Shown here one piece after another: positions 16,001-27,274 of a DNA stretch of 64,000 nucleotides. Source of the DNA: an uncultured Chloroflexia bacterium (GTDB taxonomy: Bacteria > Chloroflexota > UBA6077 > JACCZL01); contig CAVXYC010000023.1 of assembly GCA_963765765.1 (NCBI GenBank), positions 224,001 through 288,000 of the forward strand, in the 5' to 3' direction. Numbering within the stretch: the first letter of the stretch is position 1; every line of letters begins with the position of its first letter. Made by a program: the position numbers and the translations under genes. The notes beneath the pieces were generated by a model. It made no database searches and was not told the origin of the DNA. It was given only the letters and a program-made list of their open reading frames with translations.

Positions 16001-17504
16001 GGTGGAGGGTCCGCGGAGGTTTGCGACTTGGTATGCGGAGGATTGACCTGCTGCGATTTATCCTGTGCCGGAGCCGGGGGTGGCGGTATCGCCTGCGCAG
16101 GCCGCGGCTCAATGATCGCCTCGAATTCGCCCGCGGCAATTTGCTCCCGCAAGATCATCGTGCGATCCTCTGGCTCAATCTCGATACCGCGTAGTGCTTC
16201 CATCGAGCCGGTCAAACACGCGGAGGCTTTCCGAGCGGCGACCGTGGATTGCTAAAAGCCGCATGAGTGCCCGTGCGGCCCGCTCATCGCACGGGTCGGA
16301 CTGAAGGATGCGCCGCAGGGCATTCGACGCCGCCTCGACATCGCCGCGCTGCTCGCGGGCCTCCGCCAGGCTGAGCTGCAGCTCCACCCATTGACGTCGG
16401 AGCGATTCCCGCCGCTCCTCGGCCCAGGTCTCATACGGATCACCGGCCAGGTAATCGCCGCTATACAGCTTATCCGCCTCCTCCAGAATCGGGAGGGAGT
16501 TCTCGGATGCCCGTGCGGCTCCAACCATGTGCTCAAATGCGTCTGCGTCCACCCAGATGTCGGCATCGGGGGGAACCAGAACCGCCCCTGCTGGGTGATC
16601 ACAAGGCCCTGGCCACGGGCCGCTCCGGAGGCGCCCAGCGCGGACCGGAGAGCGCTGAGCGTGGAACGGAGCGTCTTCTGCGCGGCCTCAAAATCCGGTG
16701 CCTCGGGCCAGAAGAGATCGATGGCTTCGTCGATGGTCATGCGTCGGTGTGGGCGGGTCAGCAAGCATTTCAGGAGCTGCCGTGCCTTCTGCTTCTTCCA
16801 GACACCATCCGTGAGCTCGCGGCCATCGACCAGCACGCGGAAGTGGCCCAGAAGGTGCACGCGGATGGACGCACTCGTGGCGCGCTCGGCTTGAGCTCCT
16901 TTCATTGTCGAACGGGAAAGCGGGCGAGGTCTCAGCTCCCGGATCGGCTCGTCATCTGGCAAGTAAGGAGCCACTACGCGATAGATCTCGATCGGTCGCT
17001 TCACACCGCGCAGCTGCCGCTGCCCCAGCATCCGGAGCTAGGCTTCGGGCGGAAGATGATCCCAGACTAGCTCGGCAGTGGAGGGACCCAGGAGCACTTG
17101 CTGCCCTCCGGCGAGCGCGAGCAGGCGCGATGCGCGATTCAACACCAGTCCGAAGTAGTCCCCGTCTCGTTGCCCGGCAACGCCGGTCAAGAGCGCCATT
17201 CGGACTCTCAGTGGGGCGTTTTCTGACCACGCCTGGCGGGTGATCTCGCGCTGCGTGTCAAGTGCGGCTGTCAGGGCGTCTGACGCCCTGCGAAGGCGGC
17301 GTAAGCGCCATCCCCCGTCGTCTTGAAGATGGTTCCGCCGTGCCGCTCGACGTTGGCTCTCACGATGGAGTCGTGTAGAGCCAGGTGGGATTCCATCCCG
17401 AGTGGATCGCGCTCCCAGTGAAGGGTGCTGTCCTCGATGTCTGTGAGAAGGAATGTGACCGTGCCCTGAGGTAGCGCTTTGCCGACTGGCACGGCTTGGC
17501 CCAT
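13053..17504 (-). CDS. multidomain signalling protein: class III nucleotide cyclase - wHTH/BTAD - AAA_16/STAND ATPase - TPR (multiply frameshifted)
   Basis: VTFLLTDIEDST..KTTGDG and GDYFG..LNRASRL (cyclase); VHLLGHFRV..KARQLLKCLL (SARP wHTH); LYSGDYL..DPCDE (BTAD); APAGTGKS Walker A, LEDLH Walker B, TGGNPLFLEQ; TPR helices 13053-14400. Confidence 0.85.
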
Positions 17505-17770: not shown

Positions 17771-18463
17771 ATGAGGACAGTGAATGAAGCCCGTTTCGAT
17801 CCACAGCTGACAACCGTTGCGCCGGCATACACAGCCATCATTCCTTTGAACACGCCCGAGTGGGATCGGCCGTGTCTGGACGAGAGTGATCATCAGACTA
17901 GTCTCGACGGAGATCTGGCCTGGAGTGCGATTTACTCACGGCTCTCCTTTGATCGCGGCGACCATCAGGCGTTTCAGGCGCTTCAGCGGCGTGTCGCTCG
18001 CTGGGCGCATCGTCAGCTCAGCTCCCCTACCTCGCTCCGCGAGCAGAGCGATGACGTCGTCGCTGACACCTGCGCGGCGGTGGTCTTGGGATTGGGGCAG
18101 GCGTACGGCGCGGAAACATTTTCGGGGTTCGTCTATGGTCATTTCCTGAGTGCCCGCCGTCGTTACCTGCGCTTTTCTCGTATGGAGCTTGTTCCGCTGA
18201 ATGATCATCTGGTGGATGCACACACCGAGATTGACCCATCCGCTGACGAGCTGGCCCTTTTGCGCCGATGCCTGCATGGGCTTACGCCTCGCGAGCGGCG
18301 GGCCGTGGAGCTGCGGTACTTTGACGATGTCTCGTCCCGAGAGATTGCCAGCGCACTCGGAGTCACGGAGACCAACGCGCGTCGGATCGTGTTCAACGGC
18401 ATCGCGCACATGCGACGGAGTGCCCAGCGTATCTGGCCTTCAGGGCGCGAGGGTGAGCAGTGA
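17771..18463 (+). CDS. ECF-type sigma-70 factor
   Basis: SD GGAGG; region 2 (DDVVADT..FSGFV); region 4 LTPRERRAVELRYFDDVSSREIASALGVTETNARR. Confidence 0.88.
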   Translation: MRTVNEARFDPQLTTVAPAYTAIIPLNTPEWDRPCLDESDHQTSLDGDLAWSAIYSRLSFDRGDHQAFQALQRRVARWAHRQLSSPTSLREQSDDVVADTCAAVVLGLGQAYGAETFSGFVYGHFLSARRRYLRFSRMELVPLNDHLVDAHTEIDPSADELALLRRCLHGLTPRERRAVELRYFDDVSSREIASALGVTETNARRIVFNGIAHMRRSAQRIWPSGREGEQ

Positions 18464-20337: not shown

Positions 20338-21135
20338 CTAAGGCTCGAGGCCGAGCGAGGCCTTCCCATCTGTGGGCGAAAACGGCACGGAGTTATGCTC
20401 GTGGACGACCATCCACTTGCCATCGAATCTACGGAAGCATGTTGTGGAGCGGATCCACATGTTGAGTGGGCCGCGTGCTGTGGTCCCGCTGAGGCGCGTC
20501 AAGCAGTACGCAAACCCGATATCGCCGCCAGCCGCCACCTGCAGATCGCGAACCTCGTATCCGATTGGACCGTCGAACGTGGAGAACCATTCCTGCGCGC
20601 GCTTTTTTGTTTCGATGGACCCCGTGTACTGCAGCGGATTCACCACGTCAAACGCCAGGTTCTCAGGCGCAACCTGCTCGTAAAGGTCATCGACGTTTCT
20701 GGATCGCAGCGCATCCCCCCGCCGCTCGATGAGTTTTTGAATGGCGGCCAGGTCGTCGGCGTTCCCTATGCTCTCAGTGGACCGGGTAGCGGCGAGGGCG
20801 CCGAAGAAGACCTCGACTTCCTTTATCTGACCAGCTTCGACCCTGAGGCGCTCTGAATTCCGAAACACATCACCGTGTTTCGGTTTGATCTCGTAAATGA
20901 TGACGACTCGGTCCCCGGATTCCATCACGTCGAGGATCTCGAAGCTGTCGATGGTATCGCCGAATGGCCAGCAGCGCTCGAAGTAGGTCGATCTGTTGAT
21001 GTGATCGTCGTAAGGGCTGGTGAAGGTGAAGTCGTCACTAAGGATTGACTCGACGGTTGCACGATCTCTACGAGCGAAGGCCTCATACGAGCGCCGCACG
21101 ATGTCAGCGGCGGATTGGGTCATCGACATCGTCAT
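20338..21135 (-). CDS. tandem SnoaL/NTF2-like domain protein
   Basis: Domain 1: LSDDFTFTSPYDD..YFERCWP..FRNSE..VEVFFG; domain 2: W.RSTTCFRR.DGKW.VVHEHNSVPF; SD GAGAGGG. Confidence 0.85.
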   Translation of the reverse strand: MTMSMTQSAADIVRRSYEAFARRDRATVESILSDDFTFTSPYDDHINRSTYFERCWPFGDTIDSFEILDVMESGDRVVIIYEIKPKHGDVFRNSERLRVEAGQIKEVEVFFGALAATRSTESIGNADDLAAIQKLIERRGDALRSRNVDDLYEQVAPENLAFDVVNPLQYTGSIETKKRAQEWFSTFDGPIGYEVRDLQVAAGGDIGFAYCLTRLSGTTARGPLNMWIRSTTCFRRFDGKWMVVHEHNSVPFSPTDGKASLGLEP

Positions 21136-21193
21136 TCCCTCTCTTGCTTCAGCGAATACAACGGATCGCTGGCAATTGCTGGGCCAACGGGTC

Positions 21194-22534
21194 TTACGGT
21201 TGCAGCGTGGCTTCAGAAATGATGAGTCCTTTGCCGCAGGCAGGATCGTCTGAGCTCTCCGGCCCGCCCTCGCTGCGTTGAAGAACATAGCGCCAGATCT
21301 GGCGCTTCGGCTCAATGTCTTCATCTGAGCCATTCGAGTGTCGGATTTTCCCACCCCATCGTTCTTCCACAATGGCGAGTAATCCAGATTTGAAGGCGTC
21401 AGGCTGAGCTTCGCTCATACTTTGAACTTGCACCTTCCGGGTCAATCGAGCATCCAGGACGTCGCCCAGGGCACGAAGATTCTGAAGCTGTTGCCGACGC
21501 GCGGAAAGTGCTGCGCCAGAGTAGGCGCATTCCAGATCGGAGATCGGGCGAGTGGCGTCTCTGCCTAGTCTGACCCATGTTTGGGCAGCGTGCGCCACGG
21601 ACTGAGCGACAAGCGGCTCCATCAGCTCGCGCGGACCGACGGCAGTTGCCGGCGATGCACATTCGTCAGGCCCGTTGCGTGGCGCGATACAGAGCTGTAT
21701 GCCTTGATCAGAGAACAACCAGTTGGTCGCCGAATCGGGGACTGTATAAATCGCGTAACTGCCAGGCGTCTGATCTCGATCCGTATCCCAGACGTACGTC
21801 GCGTTGCCGTGTTCGTCGCTGTTCACACTGACAAGTGGGCGATCGAATAGCGCAAATGCCCCAAGCGCGTTGCTCTCCACAAGTCGGAAAAGGAGCAATG
21901 CCACATCTTGATTCGCGGGAAAGCCCGTCATTCGAATATTGAGGCGAGCTCCGGCCCGGCCGGTTGGCAGGAGTTCAGTAGGCGCATCGGGCCCCTCGCG
22001 CCCCCAGCCCGCTGCTACCAGAGGTGCTCCGGTGCGTGCGGTTACTTTGGCCGGAAACTCCGCAACGTTCGTACCCTGACGCATCAGCAGCACGGCGTTG
22101 CCCAGAGACGCATCCAGCGGTATCCACCAGAAGACCACATCTGCTTCATCATGCACCGGTGTAAGCTCTCGGCCGTCTGCGAGTCGGAGAGAAAACGTTG
22201 GTCGCGGCTGACTGGCCCATCCTCGTGCCTCGAGCGCGGCATCGCGATTCACACGCATGATCTGGTTTTGCGAAACCTCGCATGGTGCCTCGTAGCCTGC
22301 GTCGCTGGTCACGCCGCAGCCCCGCCCGATGACCCCGCTCGCCCCGCCGCCGGCCCAGTTCAATAGCAGCGCTAAGTCGTCCAACACCTCGTCGGGGACG
22401 TCTTCTTCGTTACCGTCCTGGTCCATCGGCGCCGCGGCGGCGATTCCAGGCCTTCCGTCAAGCCATTGAGCCTGGAACGGCGCGAGACCAAGGAACACGA
22501 GAAGAATTATCAGGATCGGACGGATGGCGCACAT
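21194..22534 (-). CDS. secreted hypothetical protein with possible ARC6/IMS-like C-terminal domain
   Basis: Signal-like ILIILLVFLGLAPFQA; Ig-like middle region (GFPANQDV..PGSYAI); C-terminal L..AYSGAAL....L..LRA.G...VEERW pattern; several Cys. Confidence 0.6.
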   Translation of the reverse strand: MCAIRPILIILLVFLGLAPFQAQWLDGRPGIAAAAPMDQDGNEEDVPDEVLDDLALLLNWAGGGASGVIGRGCGVTSDAGYEAPCEVSQNQIMRVNRDAALEARGWASQPRPTFSLRLADGRELTPVHDEADVVFWWIPLDASLGNAVLLMRQGTNVAEFPAKVTARTGAPLVAAGWGREGPDAPTELLPTGRAGARLNIRMTGFPANQDVALLLFRLVESNALGAFALFDRPLVSVNSDEHGNATYVWDTDRDQTPGSYAIYTVPDSATNWLFSDQGIQLCIAPRNGPDECASPATAVGPRELMEPLVAQSVAHAAQTWVRLGRDATRPISDLECAYSGAALSARRQQLQNLRALGDVLDARLTRKVQVQSMSEAQPDAFKSGLLAIVEERWGGKIRHSNGSDEDIEPKRQIWRYVLQRSEGGPESSDDPACGKGLIISEATLQP

Positions 22535-22553
22535 AATATCGTTCCAATCATGG

Positions 22554-25299
22554 CTATAAGCCCTGCTTCCCAAGGTCGAAGCCGGTCTGAAATTGCTGTT
22601 GGCAAGCACGCTCACTCGCGACCGGAGGTAGGTCTGCCCCGCTTCTCGCTACGGTCCCGATATGAGCGTGGACGCGTCCCAGATTTCGGCAGAACAGATA
22701 ACGTCGCTCTGCTTCCCCGCCCATTTCGCGGGCGGACTGGATGCTGCTGAGCTCAATGGCCGAAGTAAAGGCTCTGGCCGCGGCTTCGTAATCTTCATCA
22801 ATCAGCGTGATGGCGCCATTCATGGCGTGTGCCTCGATCGCCCAATCCTTCAAACGGCTGTCTCTTGGATCGGCCGGCGTAGGCGTCGACGACTCGCTGC
22901 AACTCACGGCGAGCATCGGCTGAGCTGTAGCCCTCCAGTCCCGCGCGGGACAAACAGTACGTGGCGCGACCAATCCCAAAGTGCACCTTCGGCTCGATAT
23001 TCGCGATCGGCGTCTGGTGCTTCGATGCTAGCGCTCGCCTATACAGGTCGATTGCCGATTTCAAGCCATCAATGTCGACGGCCGGCGAGTTTCTGGGACA
23101 GGAGCCGGCAGATTGAAGAAAGGTCACTTCCGCCAATCCGACGTAGGCGCGCGCAAACTCGCGATCGAGCTCCAGCGATTGCTCGTAATGTGCGCGAGCG
23201 CTTTCGAATAGTGCGCGCCTTTGACCGAGGCCGGCCGACGCGGCGGCCTGCTTACTATCGAGATCGCCCATCAGCAACAGCAGTGTCTCGAGGCCGTGCG
23301 TGCCTTGTGACGAGAGATTCTCGGCAGATAGGTCCAAGCCCGACGCATCTACTGAGTCCTTGAAGTTCGATGACGCCTCTTCGTAACTCCGAGTGGCGAA
23401 TGCGTTGACACCCAGAATGAACTGGACGAGCGATCGCGTGGATTGGGCGAGCCGTTGCTGAAGCTCTTGCTGATCGTTGACGCTAACAAAGAGGTTGGCG
23501 TCCGGCCGAAATCGAATATCGCCAAAGGCGTAGAAACCGGGGTCAATGGTATTCAGGCCCTGGCGACCTGAGACGAATATCTCCGGAAGAAATCGCTTCC
23601 CACCTTCAATGACCTTGCCTGAGACGATGAGATCCGCCTGAATGCTGGATGCCAGCTTCTCCGCTGCTTTCTCACGCTCGCTGGTGGTTGCTCCCGTGAT
23701 GCGTCCAGTCAACTCTGGCCCACGGATCTCCACCGCGCTCCCAGCCACCGAGGCCGCCGCCTGATCCAGGGGAGCGCGTCGTTCGTTCAGCTCAGCCGCA
23801 AATCGGCTGGCCAGCTCCGCGCCGCGATCCCACGGTTTCACTGCTTCACCATCACCAGCCTGGCCGAATTCCGCCACGGCGATGTTCATGCTGCCGCCCA
23901 TCACCGGAAGCGGTTCAGGAAAGAGGACTGGCCACAGTGAAGGCAGGCCAAGGGCGAGCATCGCCGCCAGGGTGACCGACGCCACCACCGTTCCGATCAC
24001 GGACGTTCGCTCATGCATCCAGGGCAGACACGTCTTCCAGGTAAGTGGAATGGGCGGTGGGGATGGGACGTCGAAGCGAATGGCCTCACCGGCGGCCAAA
24101 TAGCACGTGGGAATGCCCGTGAGCGGGTCCGGCGAAGTGCTCCCCCGTGACCGTCGTCTGACGGCGGCGGCAAGGGCGAGATCCACCGGTGCGCCATCCA
24201 GCACCGCCGAATAGAAGGTGCGAAAGGTCCGCGCGTCCTGCTCTTCAATGCCCTTCAGAGGCACGCCAATGACGGCGGCCAGGTCTTGCTCCAGCAGGGC
24301 CGGCCCGCTCCGAACCAGGGTTTCCGATGTGGATGAGCTCGGTGATGGGGCTGTGGAGAATGCCGCGACTTGCACACCGTATCGCTGCATCAGCGCCCCG
24401 AGCAGCGTAAGCGACCACGTATCGTCGCCCTCGGCAGTACCAAGTACGTGGATAACGTCCAGGGAGCACTCCGGGCCAGCCGCGTCGACGATCGCGTTCT
24501 CAAGGGCCTCAGTGTTCGACGGGGCGGAGCGCGTCAGTACAAGTCTCCGTGCGTGCTCCATATCCGCGACGGAACGCTCCATGGCGGCGGCATTGATCGC
24601 TATTTGATCCGCCCCCCGATGTTGACTCTGTACATCCACCACGAGCACGCGAAAGGGCGAGAGCGTCGCAATCGGTCCGACGTTTCGGGATTTGGCGCTG
24701 TCGTCGGTACTCCGAACGACCGTTCCGCGCTGAAGAAGCCACTGCGTAGACTCCTCATTCCAGAGCAGCTCCCAGGGAAGCTCATTGAGCGCCGCGTCAT
24801 GGAGATGAAGCCGCAAACGGATGAGGTTCGGTCGATCCTGACACAGTCTGTACAGCTTGAGCAGTGGTGGGGTGAACAGTGCGCGAAACAGGCGCTCCCC
24901 GTACGCGCGGGCATCGGCATTTAGCTCGCCGCGCCGCCGAGCCGCGCGGGCACCGATCAGCTCCAGCTCGGAGAAAGGAGAACGGAAGGTCGAGACCGTT
25001 GGGCGGCGCTCATCACCAATATTGCTGATGACAACGTATTCACCGGCCACTCTTTGCTCGAAACGGACATCGAGCTCCTGGACGCCGGCTTCGGATCCTA
25101 CGATGAGCGTACCGACGACATTGTTCTGGTCGCCTGTGACGATGATGGAGTCCACCACGTCACCGCTCACGGTCACGCTGCCGTCGCCCAGCGGTGGCTC
25201 ACTCAACGCCCTGGCGACGTCAGGATCGGCGACGAGCGGCTTAGGAGACGAAGGCATTCCCACCTGGGAATCGATGTCTTTGCGGTCGGGCTGGTTCAT
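22554..25299 (-). CDS. N-terminal amyloid-like motif - degenerate CHAT domain - TM - TPR protein (C-terminal frameshift near 22870)
   Basis: YGERLFRALF..RLRLHL..LNELPWELL, PFRVLVV, DARTFRTFYSAVLDGAPVDLALAAA (CHAT); TM ~23930-24000; NIAVAEFG domain; TPRs (YEQSLELDREFARAYVGLA). Confidence 0.82.
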
Positions 25300-25308
25300 T
25301 GAGCACCG

Positions 25309-25746
25309 TTACTCTGATAGGCGGTTACGGTCACCCGTGACGATGGTGCTCCCCTGGACGGACCCGCCTACCGCTACACTTCGCTCTCCACCGGCTGACA
25401 CGTTCACCGTTCCAGCATCGCCCTTTGCGCGCTCCAGCAGTCCCTGAAGGTCCCCGGCTAACTCAGTATCATCTGTCAGAAGCTTTCTAAGCTGTATTCG
25501 CAACGCGGCCTGATAGTCGGCGTCCTCGGGGTTGGCGGCGGCGTCTTTCACCGCCTCATCGGCCGCTGGAGCAGAGCTCACCTTGGGAAAGAGTCGAGCC
25601 CATAGAGCCTCGGCAAGAGAGCTTTTCTGCTTATCAACCTGGTCGGCAACGCCTTCTGCAATGGCCTGACCGGACTTGATGAGCTGGGGCAAAAACGGCG
25701 TCAGAATAGCCGCGAGCTGCGTCGCCAGCGGCGCTAGAGTATCCAT
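25309..25746 (-). CDS. Bell-like helical protein with C-terminal BASS-type amyloid signalling motif (145 aa)
   Basis: SD AAAGGG; LAAILTPFLPQLIKSG..AE..LWARL..P.DAD.QAALR.QLRKLL..D..LA helical domain; tail VSAGGERSVAVGGSVQGSTIVTGDRN. Confidence 0.78.
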   Translation of the reverse strand: MDTLAPLATQLAAILTPFLPQLIKSGQAIAEGVADQVDKQKSSLAEALWARLFPKVSSAPAADEAVKDAAANPEDADYQAALRIQLRKLLTDDTELAGDLQGLLERAKGDAGTVNVSAGGERSVAVGGSVQGSTIVTGDRNRLSE

Positions 25747-26012
25747 CGCATCCAACCCTTTCTCGTGCCAGTGAAGAGCGGGGGGTAACGCGACACGTTC
25801 CACCTCGTGGTGCGTTGCGCGCACAGTACCTGTGGCGGCGGGAGGTGTCAAGCACAGTTGGCCTAGTTGATTGTCGGAGCGGAGGAGCCGCCACGACCTT
25901 CCTCTCCTTGGACTGCGGCGGTCTTCGCCGCTTTCGATTAGCGCAAAGCGTGTCCGCATTCGGCTTCCAGCCGGCGAGAAAGCGGCGACCGCCGCAGTCC
26001 AAAGTCTGAGTT

Positions 26013-27274
26013 TCAGGCGCGTTGAACTCCGCCCCTGGGCAAGTAGAAACGGGCTCCCAGCGCCAGAAGAATGAGAGCACCAGCCATGAGCGCCGTGGTG
26101 ATCGGTGCTCCGATCATTGCCGTGCCAGCCCCTGCCATCAGCGTGCCGAGTGGCACTGCCGCTCGATCCAGGAACAATGTACTCAACACTCGACCACGGA
26201 ATTCCTCATCCACGGTCTCCTGAATCAATGTGTTATTCAGGGCGTTGTAGAGCTGCCGAAAGGTACCCACGACGACGATTGCAATAGCCGAGAGCCAGAC
26301 CCAGGGCGAGAGCGCAAATATCGCCAGCGTAACCCCGAACCCCACTAGCCCAATGAACATCAGCCGACGGCGCCCACGTTGTATGCCGAGCGAAGCAACG
26401 ACGAGTGCTCCCACCACAGCTCCAAGTCCATTGCAGGCAGTAAGAAAACCAAGACCCTGGCTGCCGATCTGCAGCACGTCCTTGGCGAAAATGGTCAGCA
26501 TGCTCGAGTACGGCATGCCAAAGACCATCGGGATCAAGGCGAGTAGTACCAACCCGCGAATGTTGGGACGACTCCAGATGTAGTGACACCCCCGGTGAGG
26601 TCCTCGAGGACACCTCGGTGCTTCCTTCGCGTCTGCGGAGGAAACTGCATCATTGTCAGACCACAGAGTACCGCCACAAAACTCAGCGCATTGACATAGA
26701 AAGCTCCTGCCACGCCGATGTAGGCGATCAAGATGCCGCCGATTGCTGGCCCCACGATCCGGGTGGAATTATTTGTGGCCGCGTGGAGCGCTACCGCGTT
26801 CATGAGGTCCTCACGCGGAACGAGGTCTGAAATCAGTGACTGACGGGCAGGCTGATTAAACGACATCATCATGCCGCGCCCGAAGGCCACTATCAGGACC
26901 ATCCAGAACTGAACGATCCCAGTTGACACGACAATGGCCAGGAGCAGGGCCAGCAGCATTGCCACGGTCTGGGTAGTGATGAGAAGACGCCGTCGTGGCC
27001 AGCGGTCGGCCACGACTCCGCCGACTAATGTGAACAAGAGGACTGGGATCATTCGAATGGCGTTCATGACACCCAGGGCAAGGGCGGATCCGGTGATGTC
27101 GTACACCAGCCAGTTCAACGCAATCTGGTCCATCCAGTCGCCTGAAGACGACGCCATGGTGCCAAACCAGTGAAGCCGATAGTTCCGGTGTTGGAGGGAG
27201 GCGAACGTCTTGCGTACGCCGCGCACCCGCTCATTCTGGTCCTTGATTTGAGCGGGCGGCTCTCCTGTGATCAA
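26013..27274 (-). CDS. MFS transporter (MFS_3/EntS-like; frameshifted)
   Basis: FASLQHRNYRL.W.G...S..GDWM, GGVVADRWPRRRLL, FNQPARQSLISDLV, FRGRVLS. Confidence 0.9.

Follow-up and report, generated by a model that had tools for sequence, protein, structure and literature searches.

A candidate Bell/BASS-like effector-receptor gene pair with a single-pass membrane partner in an uncultured Chloroflexia bacterium

The locus and the shared motif

In a stretch of 64,000 nucleotides from an uncultured Chloroflexia bacterium (GenBank assembly GCA_963765765.1, contig CAVXYC010000023.1, positions 224,001 to 288,000; hereafter the window), two adjacent genes encode a small helical protein and a larger receptor-like protein that carry the same short motif, the former at its C-terminus and the latter near its N-terminus. 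This arrangement would be consistent with an effector-receptor module of the kind described for bacterial Bell domain proteins and the BASS motifs of amyloid signalling, with a membrane protein in the place of the usual NOD-like receptor (NLR). The small gene, the receptor-like gene and a third gene downstream are collinear, all on the minus strand, and the features of the pair are the following:

25309..25746, minus strand: small putative effector gene, 145 residues (open reading frame, ORF; homologues begin at the same MD)
25417..25746, minus strand: helical N-terminal domain (N-domain) of the small protein, residues 1-110 (AlphaFold2 model; Asp at position 2)
25324..25413, minus strand: C-terminal motif of the small protein, residues 112-141, GTVNVSAGGERSVAVGGSVQGSTIVTGDRN (homologue conservation and profile hidden Markov model, HMM)
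25300..25308, same (minus) strand: spacer of 9 nucleotides between the small and receptor-like genes
22798..25299, minus strand: receptor-like gene, open frame as assembled, 833 residues (close homologues P0067-P0069)
25120..25188, minus strand: N-terminal motif copy of the receptor-like protein, residues 38-60, GDGSVTVSGDVVDSIIVTGDQNN (BLASTP, HMM)
24040..25086, minus strand: CHAT (caspase-like) fold without the dyad (Pfam, Foldseek, dyad columns)
23923..24000, minus strand: single transmembrane helix, residues 434-459 (hydrophobicity and AlphaFold2 helix)
23530..23889, minus strand: alpha/beta domain, predicted to be extracytoplasmic, residues 471-590, with a conserved NIAVAEFG start (AlphaFold2)
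22864..23481, minus strand: TPR-like helical repeats, residues 607-812 (AlphaFold2 helices)

The spacer follows from the positions of the stop codon of the small gene (TAA, 25309-25311) and the next ATG, that of the receptor-like gene (25297-25299); the starts of homologues give no backing to a longer ORF of 216 residues that reaches 25959. BLASTP aligned residues 120-143 of the small protein with residues 38-61 of the receptor-like protein without gaps (13/24 identical, E 6e-4), with 13 of the 23 positions identical over receptor-like residues 38-60, and returned no further significant segment between the two proteins. The gene coordinates, the gap, the position of the motif and the lack of any other similarity were all as reported in the first-pass annotation of this DNA, which had also described the small protein as ending in the motif; the motif is C-terminal but does not close the protein exactly, as four more residues (RLSE) come after its GDRN.

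Searched by regular expression through 99,334 six-frame ORFs of at least 40 residues, the 6.49-Mb assembly yielded these two ORFs as the sole matches to the motif. An HMM of 30 positions, built solely from the C-termini of small-protein homologues with the partner left out, ranked the small protein first genome-wide (E 8.7e-15) and the adjoining receptor-like protein second (E 0.018), the third-ranked match having an E value of 0.081. The shared motif is real and goes beyond chance. Gly, Val, Ser and Thr account for 20 of the 32 residues of the motif region, which has four Gly positions and no Pro, and AlphaFold2 predicted both copies to be disordered in the monomers. Prediction of a complex between the receptor tail (residues 25-100) and the effector tail (residues 100-145) gave a score of 0.02 against a mark of 0.32 and was informative neither way.

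The small helical protein

The small protein begins with MDTLAPLATQLAAILTPFLPQL, and its initial MD is kept in homologues. Six helices were predicted by AlphaFold2 (residues 4-15, 19-25, 36-58, 60-71, 76-92 and 94-110) with confidence (predicted local distance difference test, pLDDT) of about 57-87 in the helices and a mean of 68 for the model, followed by a disordered tail at residues 111-145 (pLDDT <50). Its hydrophobicity peaks, moderately, at residues 5-23 (Kyte-Doolittle 1.31). Three traits of Bell proteins are therefore present, counting the family as a whole: a short protein (145 residues) of which about the first 100 residues form an alpha-helical bundle, an N-terminal hydrophobic helix in which position 2 or 3 is acidic, and, in relatives, occurrence of the domain at the N-terminus of NLR-type proteins.

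A large protein collection held 65 homologues of the small protein, most of them 138-148 residues long. Across 26 aligned members, G120, R122, S123, V124, A125 and G138 are invariant, within a near-invariant C-terminal stretch that reads A-S-G-E-R-S-V-A-x-G-G-...-G-S-T-I-x-T-G-D. Copies 98-100% identical to the small protein exist elsewhere (P0001, L050), and the nearest protein-atlas clusters are unnamed groups of 131-139 residues from Actinomycetota and Cyanobacteriota. Compared with PDB sequences, the profile of the family gave chance-level matches only, the best being an HMA-domain chain (6fu9, E 0.17).

Past the motif, five homologues (P0028, P0059, P0064, P0029 and P0058) carry an additional C-terminal segment, which is a KTSC domain (PF13619) in some and a match to EAD10 (effector-associated domain 10, PF19954) in the others. 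The helical N-domain was also seen in proteins of about 150 residues without this motif in ten Nostoc records (L203-L208, L210, L211, L213 and L215), where it seems to be combined with other C-terminal tails.

The small-protein family in other genomes

The family profile matched in 31 of 401 sampled genomes of the phylum, and named records with the small protein come from Chloroflexota (Chloroflexus, Roseiflexus), Acidobacteriota, Actinomycetota (Gaiellaceae, Microbispora, Nonomuraea), Nostoc and others. The N-domain is fused to NACHT plus FGE-sulfatase in four loci (L043, L044, L045 and L048) and to NB-ARC in another (L042). A metagenome set of 80 loci contained 78 small genes, and a motif-bearing ORF within 1 kb, which defined a neighbour, accompanied 39 of these 78, or 34 of the 59 with at least 600 nucleotides of downstream sequence. 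The 39 partners lie collinear and immediately downstream in 36 cases and divergent in 3. A Walker A motif follows the shared motif in 31 of them, at a distance of 48-299 residues (48-133 in all except L125), and Pfam searches of ten partners identified NB-ARC-TPR, NACHT-HEAT, AAA-PASTA and iSTAND architectures, with TPR only in two. The expectation that the receptor is usually an NB-ARC or NACHT NLR is thus borne out by most relatives, with the qualification that a non-NLR receptor has a precedent in Agp (see below).

By sequence comparison, the small protein is a member of an NLR-linked putative effector family that behaves like Bell/BASS as described by Dyrka et al., since its motif is common to the adjacent NLR and its N-domain is sometimes itself fused to an NLR. 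Two motif-bearing nucleoside triphosphatases (NTPases) occur near one small gene in L068, L070, L071 and L111. All-in-one open frames with the N-domain, the motif and a Walker-A NTPase were also observed (L164:4935-6680, L216:4779-7433 and L045:6876-10076) and look as if effector and receptor genes had been fused with the motif kept between them. In a further frame, cut by the start of its contig (L223:2-1819), the end of the N-domain and the motif are followed by CHAT, so that the motif is also joined directly to a soluble CHAT.

Part of the family connects to a named adaptor. EAD10 (gathering cut-off 24.1 bits) matched 12 of 40 partner N-termini at E <= 0.1, the best at 1.1e-10, and full-length matches span the motif region in L093 (35.8 bits) and L113 (27.8 bits). 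EAD10 was defined as an effector-associated adaptor family and was found on TPR-GreA/B-C-PIN proteins in the account of Kaur et al. (2021, PMC8195603), and the N-terminal motif of Agp, a receptor with the same TPR-GreA/B-C-PIN architecture, has been described as BASS11 (10.1101/2024.11.07.622273). By way of this common architecture, we infer that EAD10 and BASS11 may be equivalent.

The receptor-like partner

The receptor-like protein has neither Walker A (GxxxxGK[ST]) nor hhhhD[DE] in a pattern search and no NTPase family in Pfam, in agreement with the first-pass annotation. The window thus has one of the two traits of a BASS pair, the same motif at the C-terminus of the effector and the N-terminus of the adjacent product, without the other, an NB-ARC or NACHT partner, which is present in the 31 Walker A-bearing partners of related loci. 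The AlphaFold2 model (14-row alignment, mean pLDDT 76) begins with a disordered tail at residues 1-70 (pLDDT <50 at 1-25 and 32-70) that holds the motif, and continues at residues 72-420 with a small beta unit and an alpha/beta domain. On this part of the protein, Pfam CHAT (PF12770) scored 30.8 bits (cut-off 24) over model positions 2-151 of 289, and Foldseek found the SAVED-CHAT filament 8tl0 (E 4e-6), the craspase TPR-CHAT and separase, with E values from 4e-6 to 1e-3.

Thr288 stands in the His column and Ala317 in the Cys column of this CHAT; the stretches that read H-x-I-G-H-[AG] and L-N-A-C in homologues are H-V-L-G-T288 and S-T-A317 in the window. We take these His (GH[GA]) and Cys (AC) columns to be the catalytic dyad of the caspase fold. 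As the dyad is gone, the domain would probably serve only as an oligomerising scaffold and not as a protease.

A single segment has transmembrane character (hydrophobicity 2.24 at residues 434-452, or 437-455 of the stop-to-stop ORF). Basic residues precede it and point to a topology with the N-terminus inside and the C-terminus outside, a signal that is much clearer (K/R-rich) in the short receptor homologues described below. Beyond the membrane, the alpha/beta domain at residues 471-590 was modelled with pLDDT mostly of 70-90, with N472 and V475 invariant and F478 nearly so, and the last domain was matched by Foldseek to TPR structures, a TPR_11 match at residues 698-727 scoring under its Pfam cut-off. 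The CHAT-TM-TPR order that had been proposed for the partner is consequently retained with regard to the CHAT fold, the one transmembrane helix and the TPR-like repeats, and amended in two respects: the CHAT lacks its dyad, and the gene is frameshifted. The latter involves two further features:

22863..22869, minus strand: frameshift in the receptor-like gene, approximate site (tblastn of P0068)
22554..22862, minus strand: out-of-frame C-terminal tail of the receptor-like gene, about 100 residues (65% identity to P0068 809-909)

In tblastn, residues 13-807 of P0068 align to 22870-25251 and residues 809-909 to 22560-22862 in another frame, which indicates that the ORF at 22798-25299 is cut by a frameshift and that the full reading of the gene runs to a stop at 22554-22556. 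The frameshift lies within a G/C-rich run and leaves the motif, the CHAT, the transmembrane helix and most of the sensor unaffected. Four public soil-metagenome contig sets contained short, low-depth pieces only, and none covered 22611-22921.

Relatives of the receptor and its sensor module

The closest receptor homologues (P0067-P0069; 59-62% identical, 892-916 residues) are intact and likewise lack the dyad. The motif is kept in them nearly letter for letter, with a diverged copy in P0071 (30%) and P0155, and the remaining homologues begin directly at the CHAT domain. One of the small proteins (P0005) and P0068 list the same longest contig, of 10,440 nucleotides, the sole hint of pairing beside the nearest receptor homologues.

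For a survey of the receptor, the 150 top-ranking representatives from an exhaustive profile search were pooled with earlier matches to give 159 proteins, of which 122 have both the CHAT and the sensor module. The His and Cys are intact in 109 of the 116 CHAT-sensor proteins without the motif, and both are missing from all six that bear it. These six form two separate clades, each with SH-aLRT support of 100 in a quick maximum-likelihood tree of 116 full-length members, and the starred branches of this tree force at least two changes of motif label. The repeated coupling of motif gain with a dead CHAT suggests that one effector has been replaced by another in the course of evolution.

A shorter form of the receptor was recovered from other genomes. 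An ORF of 546 residues in G158, 31% identical to receptor residues 446-811 (E 5e-34), consists of a short motif tail, a transmembrane helix and the same alpha/beta plus TPR module. The gene for this short form is divergent from a small-protein gene in L037, in the metagenome loci L051, L056 and L086 and in the genome records L144, L159 and L221; L159 is apparently the L037 record again, and L221 is severely broken. The motif-TM-sensor form was present in four further 50%-identity clusters (P0121, P0164, P0173 and P0203). In 10 of the 35 sensor-only or unusual proteins, scanned as a sample, the sensor module was also seen with other heads replacing CHAT, namely TIR_2 (P0178), a protein kinase (P0187) and EAD7/EAD1 (P0211). 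The module thus resembles an all-purpose input from outside the cell that is coupled to heads or adaptors of immune type, and these last three proteins suggest that single-pass surface receptors with such heads in the cytoplasm form a family.

Comparison with described systems

According to Dyrka et al. (2020, 10.1101/2020.01.06.895854), Bell domains are frequent in Cyanobacteriota, Actinobacteriota and Chloroflexota, and BASS motifs occur together with CHAT, on CHAT effectors paired with NLRs. The window pair resembles the Bell/BASS-NLR pairs described there in its small (there about 120-140 residues) helical protein with Asp at position 2, its Gly/Val-rich C-terminal motif of about 25 residues that is repeated at the N-terminus of the next collinear gene product, the gap of a few nucleotides between the genes, the alternative fusion of the helical domain to NACHT or NB-ARC, and its taxonomic spread. 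It differs in that the partner has no NB-ARC or NACHT and is a membrane protein with an outside-facing module. The likeness to Bell and to BASS1-11 is one to published prose descriptions rather than to profile scores. When the small protein was called a Bell-like effector in the first pass, this was supported by comparison for its helical domain, its C-terminal motif and its link to NLRs, and was accompanied by no library match.

A closer precedent for a receptor that is not an NLR is the Escherichia coli antiphage pair Bab/Agp (Ibarlosa et al., 10.1101/2024.11.07.622273), in which, as described, such a receptor activates a Bell-type protein through a shared amyloid motif of 20-25 residues, BASS11, which occurs also with CHAT, TIR, EAD7, NACHT and NB-ARC. 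The two pairs are alike in their adjacent genes, Bell-type effector, non-NLR receptor and shared motif, and unlike in that Agp combines TPR, GreA/B-C and PIN, whereas the window partner is membrane-anchored and has no GreA/B or PIN family in Pfam. The likeness to EAD10 lies with the many NLR partners of the small-protein family that match it across the motif, while neither protein of the window pair reaches its threshold.

The fold of receptor residues about 72-420 is shared, in PDB matches, with SAVED-CHAT, the TPR-CHAT/Csx29 craspase and separase. Its best match is titled 'activated SAVED-CHAT filament', which indicates that CHAT proteins can act as assemblies. In contrast to the CHAT proteases, the window CHAT has no His/Cys dyad (T288, A317), so that proteolysis is not expected. 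DdvA of Myxococcus, a transmembrane anti-sigma factor whose TPR-CHAT has an incomplete His-Cys site (PMC11506125), is comparable as a single-pass membrane protein that unites TPR with a CHAT fold of defective active site and that controls a defence response. The TPR-CHAT of DdvA is, however, periplasmic, and its cytoplasmic part is a zinc-binding anti-sigma domain, whereas in the window receptor the CHAT is placed with the motif on the N-terminal, presumably cytoplasmic, side, only the alpha/beta domain and TPR would be outside, and no anti-sigma domain was found in Pfam searches. Caspase domains joined to transmembrane-linked extracellular sensors (CHASE2) have also been described.

Bell/BASS-NLR pairs, BASS on CHAT, the non-NLR receptor Agp and DdvA are hence already known. 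Searches of full-text literature, leaving aside supplements and subscription journals, which may hold one, turned up no BASS or EAD10 receptor described as transmembrane; nor, with the same reservation about paper supplements, did they turn up a Bell-type effector paired with a transmembrane NTPase-free receptor, whether of the motif-TM-sensor or of the motif-dead-CHAT-TM-sensor form.

Interpretation and alternatives

The most probable reading of the locus, with a probability that we would put at roughly 60%, is a two-gene Bell/BASS (HET-S/NWD2-like) effector-receptor module in which a single-pass membrane protein replaces the cytoplasmic NLR. It is supported by the anatomy of the receptor, the logic of the family as a whole and the Bab/Agp precedent. 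For the pair itself we infer an amyloid nature and toxicity, as well as a topology, a trigger and a role in defence or programmed death. The small cytoplasmic protein would be the executioner, a helical bundle that sheathes its moderately hydrophobic N-terminal helix and ends in a disordered motif of about 30 residues rich in Gly, Val, Ser and Thr, and the receptor would display the same motif on its N-terminal tail, disordered and in the cytoplasm. A signal from beyond the membrane may then cluster the receptor and so bring its tails together in a cooperative beta fold, probably cross-beta, which could act as a template for the tail of the small protein or recruit it; the helical domain of the small protein would then open and attack the membrane beside the receptor.

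Several results weigh against this interpretation. The small protein has no family in Pfam, NCBIfam or PADLOC, and Foldseek of its model against the PDB gave a best E value of 0.34. EAD10 was not matched by either the small or the receptor-like protein of the window, even at E <= 1, and the N-terminal 103 residues of the latter, taken separately, had no match to it; a search of the whole genome with the EAD10 family likewise hit neither of the two. Co-variation of the paired motifs, which had been put forward as a check of the pair, was weak: cognate motifs were 61.3% identical as opposed to 59.1% for shuffled partners, with 16 of 5000 shuffles reaching the observed identity, or 116 of 5000 once near-duplicates were removed, and the signal is overstated because the loci are kin. 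In the window, the receptor-like motif has 13 identities with its cognate small protein and up to 14 with non-cognate ones, a pair no more alike than non-cognate pairs. Adjacency is not obligatory, as 13 metagenome and 5 genome loci with ample flanking sequence had no motif-bearing neighbour, and the motif-bearing CHAT-TM form is rare, being limited to the window, P0067-P0070, P0071 and P0155. Three motif-less CHAT-TM-sensor proteins that adjoin the motif-bearing clades on the tree also have a degenerate dyad, P0122 and P0166 without both residues and P0097 without the His, so that decay of the dyad may have preceded gain of the motif. The frameshift, if real, would cost the receptor its last ~100 residues.

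Among the alternatives, the one to be taken most seriously, though we regard it as unlikely, is that the motif works as a plain homotypic adaptor, comparable to the EAD10-type beta modules of Kaur et al., and recruits the small protein stoichiometrically without templating or fibrils. The match of 12 of 40 partner N-termini to a family defined as an effector-associated adaptor (PMC8195603) would be consistent with such recruitment, as would the Death-like adaptors EAD7/EAD1 at the same position in the sensor family, and a motif that is almost invariant among the small proteins and barely co-varies fits a conserved fold as well as an amyloid. The motif is, however, short, rich in Gly, Val, Ser and Thr, predicted to be disordered and provided with four Gly, which is the description given of BASS (10.1101/2020.01.06.895854), and the motif of the EAD10-linked TPR-GreA/B-C-PIN architecture, BASS11, forms amyloid in Bab/Agp (10.1101/2024.11.07.622273), an argument that depends on the presumed equivalence of EAD10 and BASS11. 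The shared stretch is short and compositionally biased, as a chance or low-complexity similarity without function would be, yet this explanation is extremely improbable in view of the second rank of the neighbouring gene among 99,334 ORFs by profile, the same N-terminal position of the motif in receptor homologues and its recurrence at 39 of 78 related loci.

Two further explanations concern the receptor-like gene itself and appear improbable, the second somewhat more so than the first. The frameshift at about 22863-22869, the dead CHAT and the split of a neighbouring MFS gene might indicate that the receptor is a pseudogene and the locus a decaying remnant in which the pair no longer works; but in a metagenome-assembled genome, breaks in two genes less than 4 kb apart could just as well be indels introduced by assembly, the receptor break falls in a G/C-rich run and leaves the motif, CHAT, transmembrane helix and the greater part of the sensor untouched, the small gene itself is intact with 98-100% identical copies elsewhere, and P0067-P0069, intact yet without the dyad, imply that its loss is a conserved state and not recent decay. 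Alternatively, both proteins could be effectors or adaptors of a third, unlinked motif-bearing sensor such as an NLR elsewhere in the genome, the membrane protein not being a receptor at all. BASS motifs have been reported on CHAT effectors paired with NLRs (10.1101/2020.01.06.895854), and L068, L070, L071 and L111 have two motif-bearing NTPases near one small gene. Against this, a CHAT without its dyad cannot serve as a proteolytic effector, the short form is made up of motif, transmembrane helix and sensor with no effector domain besides, and no third copy of the motif, and thus no trans-acting motif-bearing NLR, was found by regular expression and HMM in the same genome, though its assembly is only 91.8% complete.

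Should the two-gene module with a membrane receptor be correct, the locus may represent a cell-death switch that responds to signals outside the cell instead of internal ones. Bacterial amyloid-type signalling, in the accounts considered here, joins cytoplasmic sensors (NLRs and the RNA-polymerase-associated Agp) to Bell effectors, and anchoring of the partner in the membrane, with a module that faces outward, would widen its range to extracellular cues. Tentatively, and with distinctly less confidence than for the pair itself, the relatives could be seen as a class of NTPase-free single-pass membrane immune receptors with a Toll-like or death-receptor layout and interchangeable heads, of which the branch in the window would kill through the amyloid-type conversion of a pore-forming Bell-like protein, so that a surface cue such as phage attachment, envelope damage or non-kin contact would lead directly to rupture of the membrane at that spot. 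Each would have an outside alpha/beta plus TPR sensor and one transmembrane helix, with a TIR, an active CHAT, a kinase, a Death-like EAD or a templating motif of 25 residues as its head. The occurrence of TIR, CHAT, kinase and EAD heads on one sensor points to a broader set of surface receptors that feed into cell-death effectors, in a sensor-head layout that parallels animal innate-immune receptors, and a motif-TM-sensor protein together with an effector of 145 residues would make a very small test system.

Downstream gene and neighbourhood

The third collinear gene, which the first-pass annotation had included in the system as a secreted protein, is the following:

21194..22534, minus strand: downstream gene, 446 residues (listed open frame 21194-22615)

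Its most likely start is the ATG at 22534 rather than 22615, which gives a protein of 446 residues with a hydrophobic N-terminus and no Pfam family. Besides itself, it has 7 homologues, on contigs whose lengths differ from those of the contigs of receptor homologues. No homologue was found at the short-receptor loci, and among 400 sampled genomes the only one was in G347, which itself lacks the small and receptor-like genes. We therefore reject the downstream gene as a component of the system, as it is not conserved at related loci. PADLOC gave no match for the small, receptor-like and downstream proteins or for the short receptor of L037.

A promoter scan of 20800-26300 found no sigma-70-like site, and terminator-like sites around the locus were no commoner than in shuffled sequence; both scans were uninformative. 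Farther along the window, a Trans_reg_C-like match at 16252-17504 (minus strand) and a short upstream ORF at 17771-18463 (plus strand) look like pieces of one broken regulator gene, adjoined by a gene for an extracytoplasmic function (ECF)-type sigma factor; no link of these genes to the motif pair was seen. Just upstream of the small gene, an MFS_3-type transporter gene (26013-27274, minus strand) is split into two overlapping ORFs, 26534-27274 matching model positions 3-206 and 26013-26552 matching positions 234-389; as this second frameshift lies within 4 kb of that in the receptor-like gene, the two would be consistent with assembly indels or with local gene decay.

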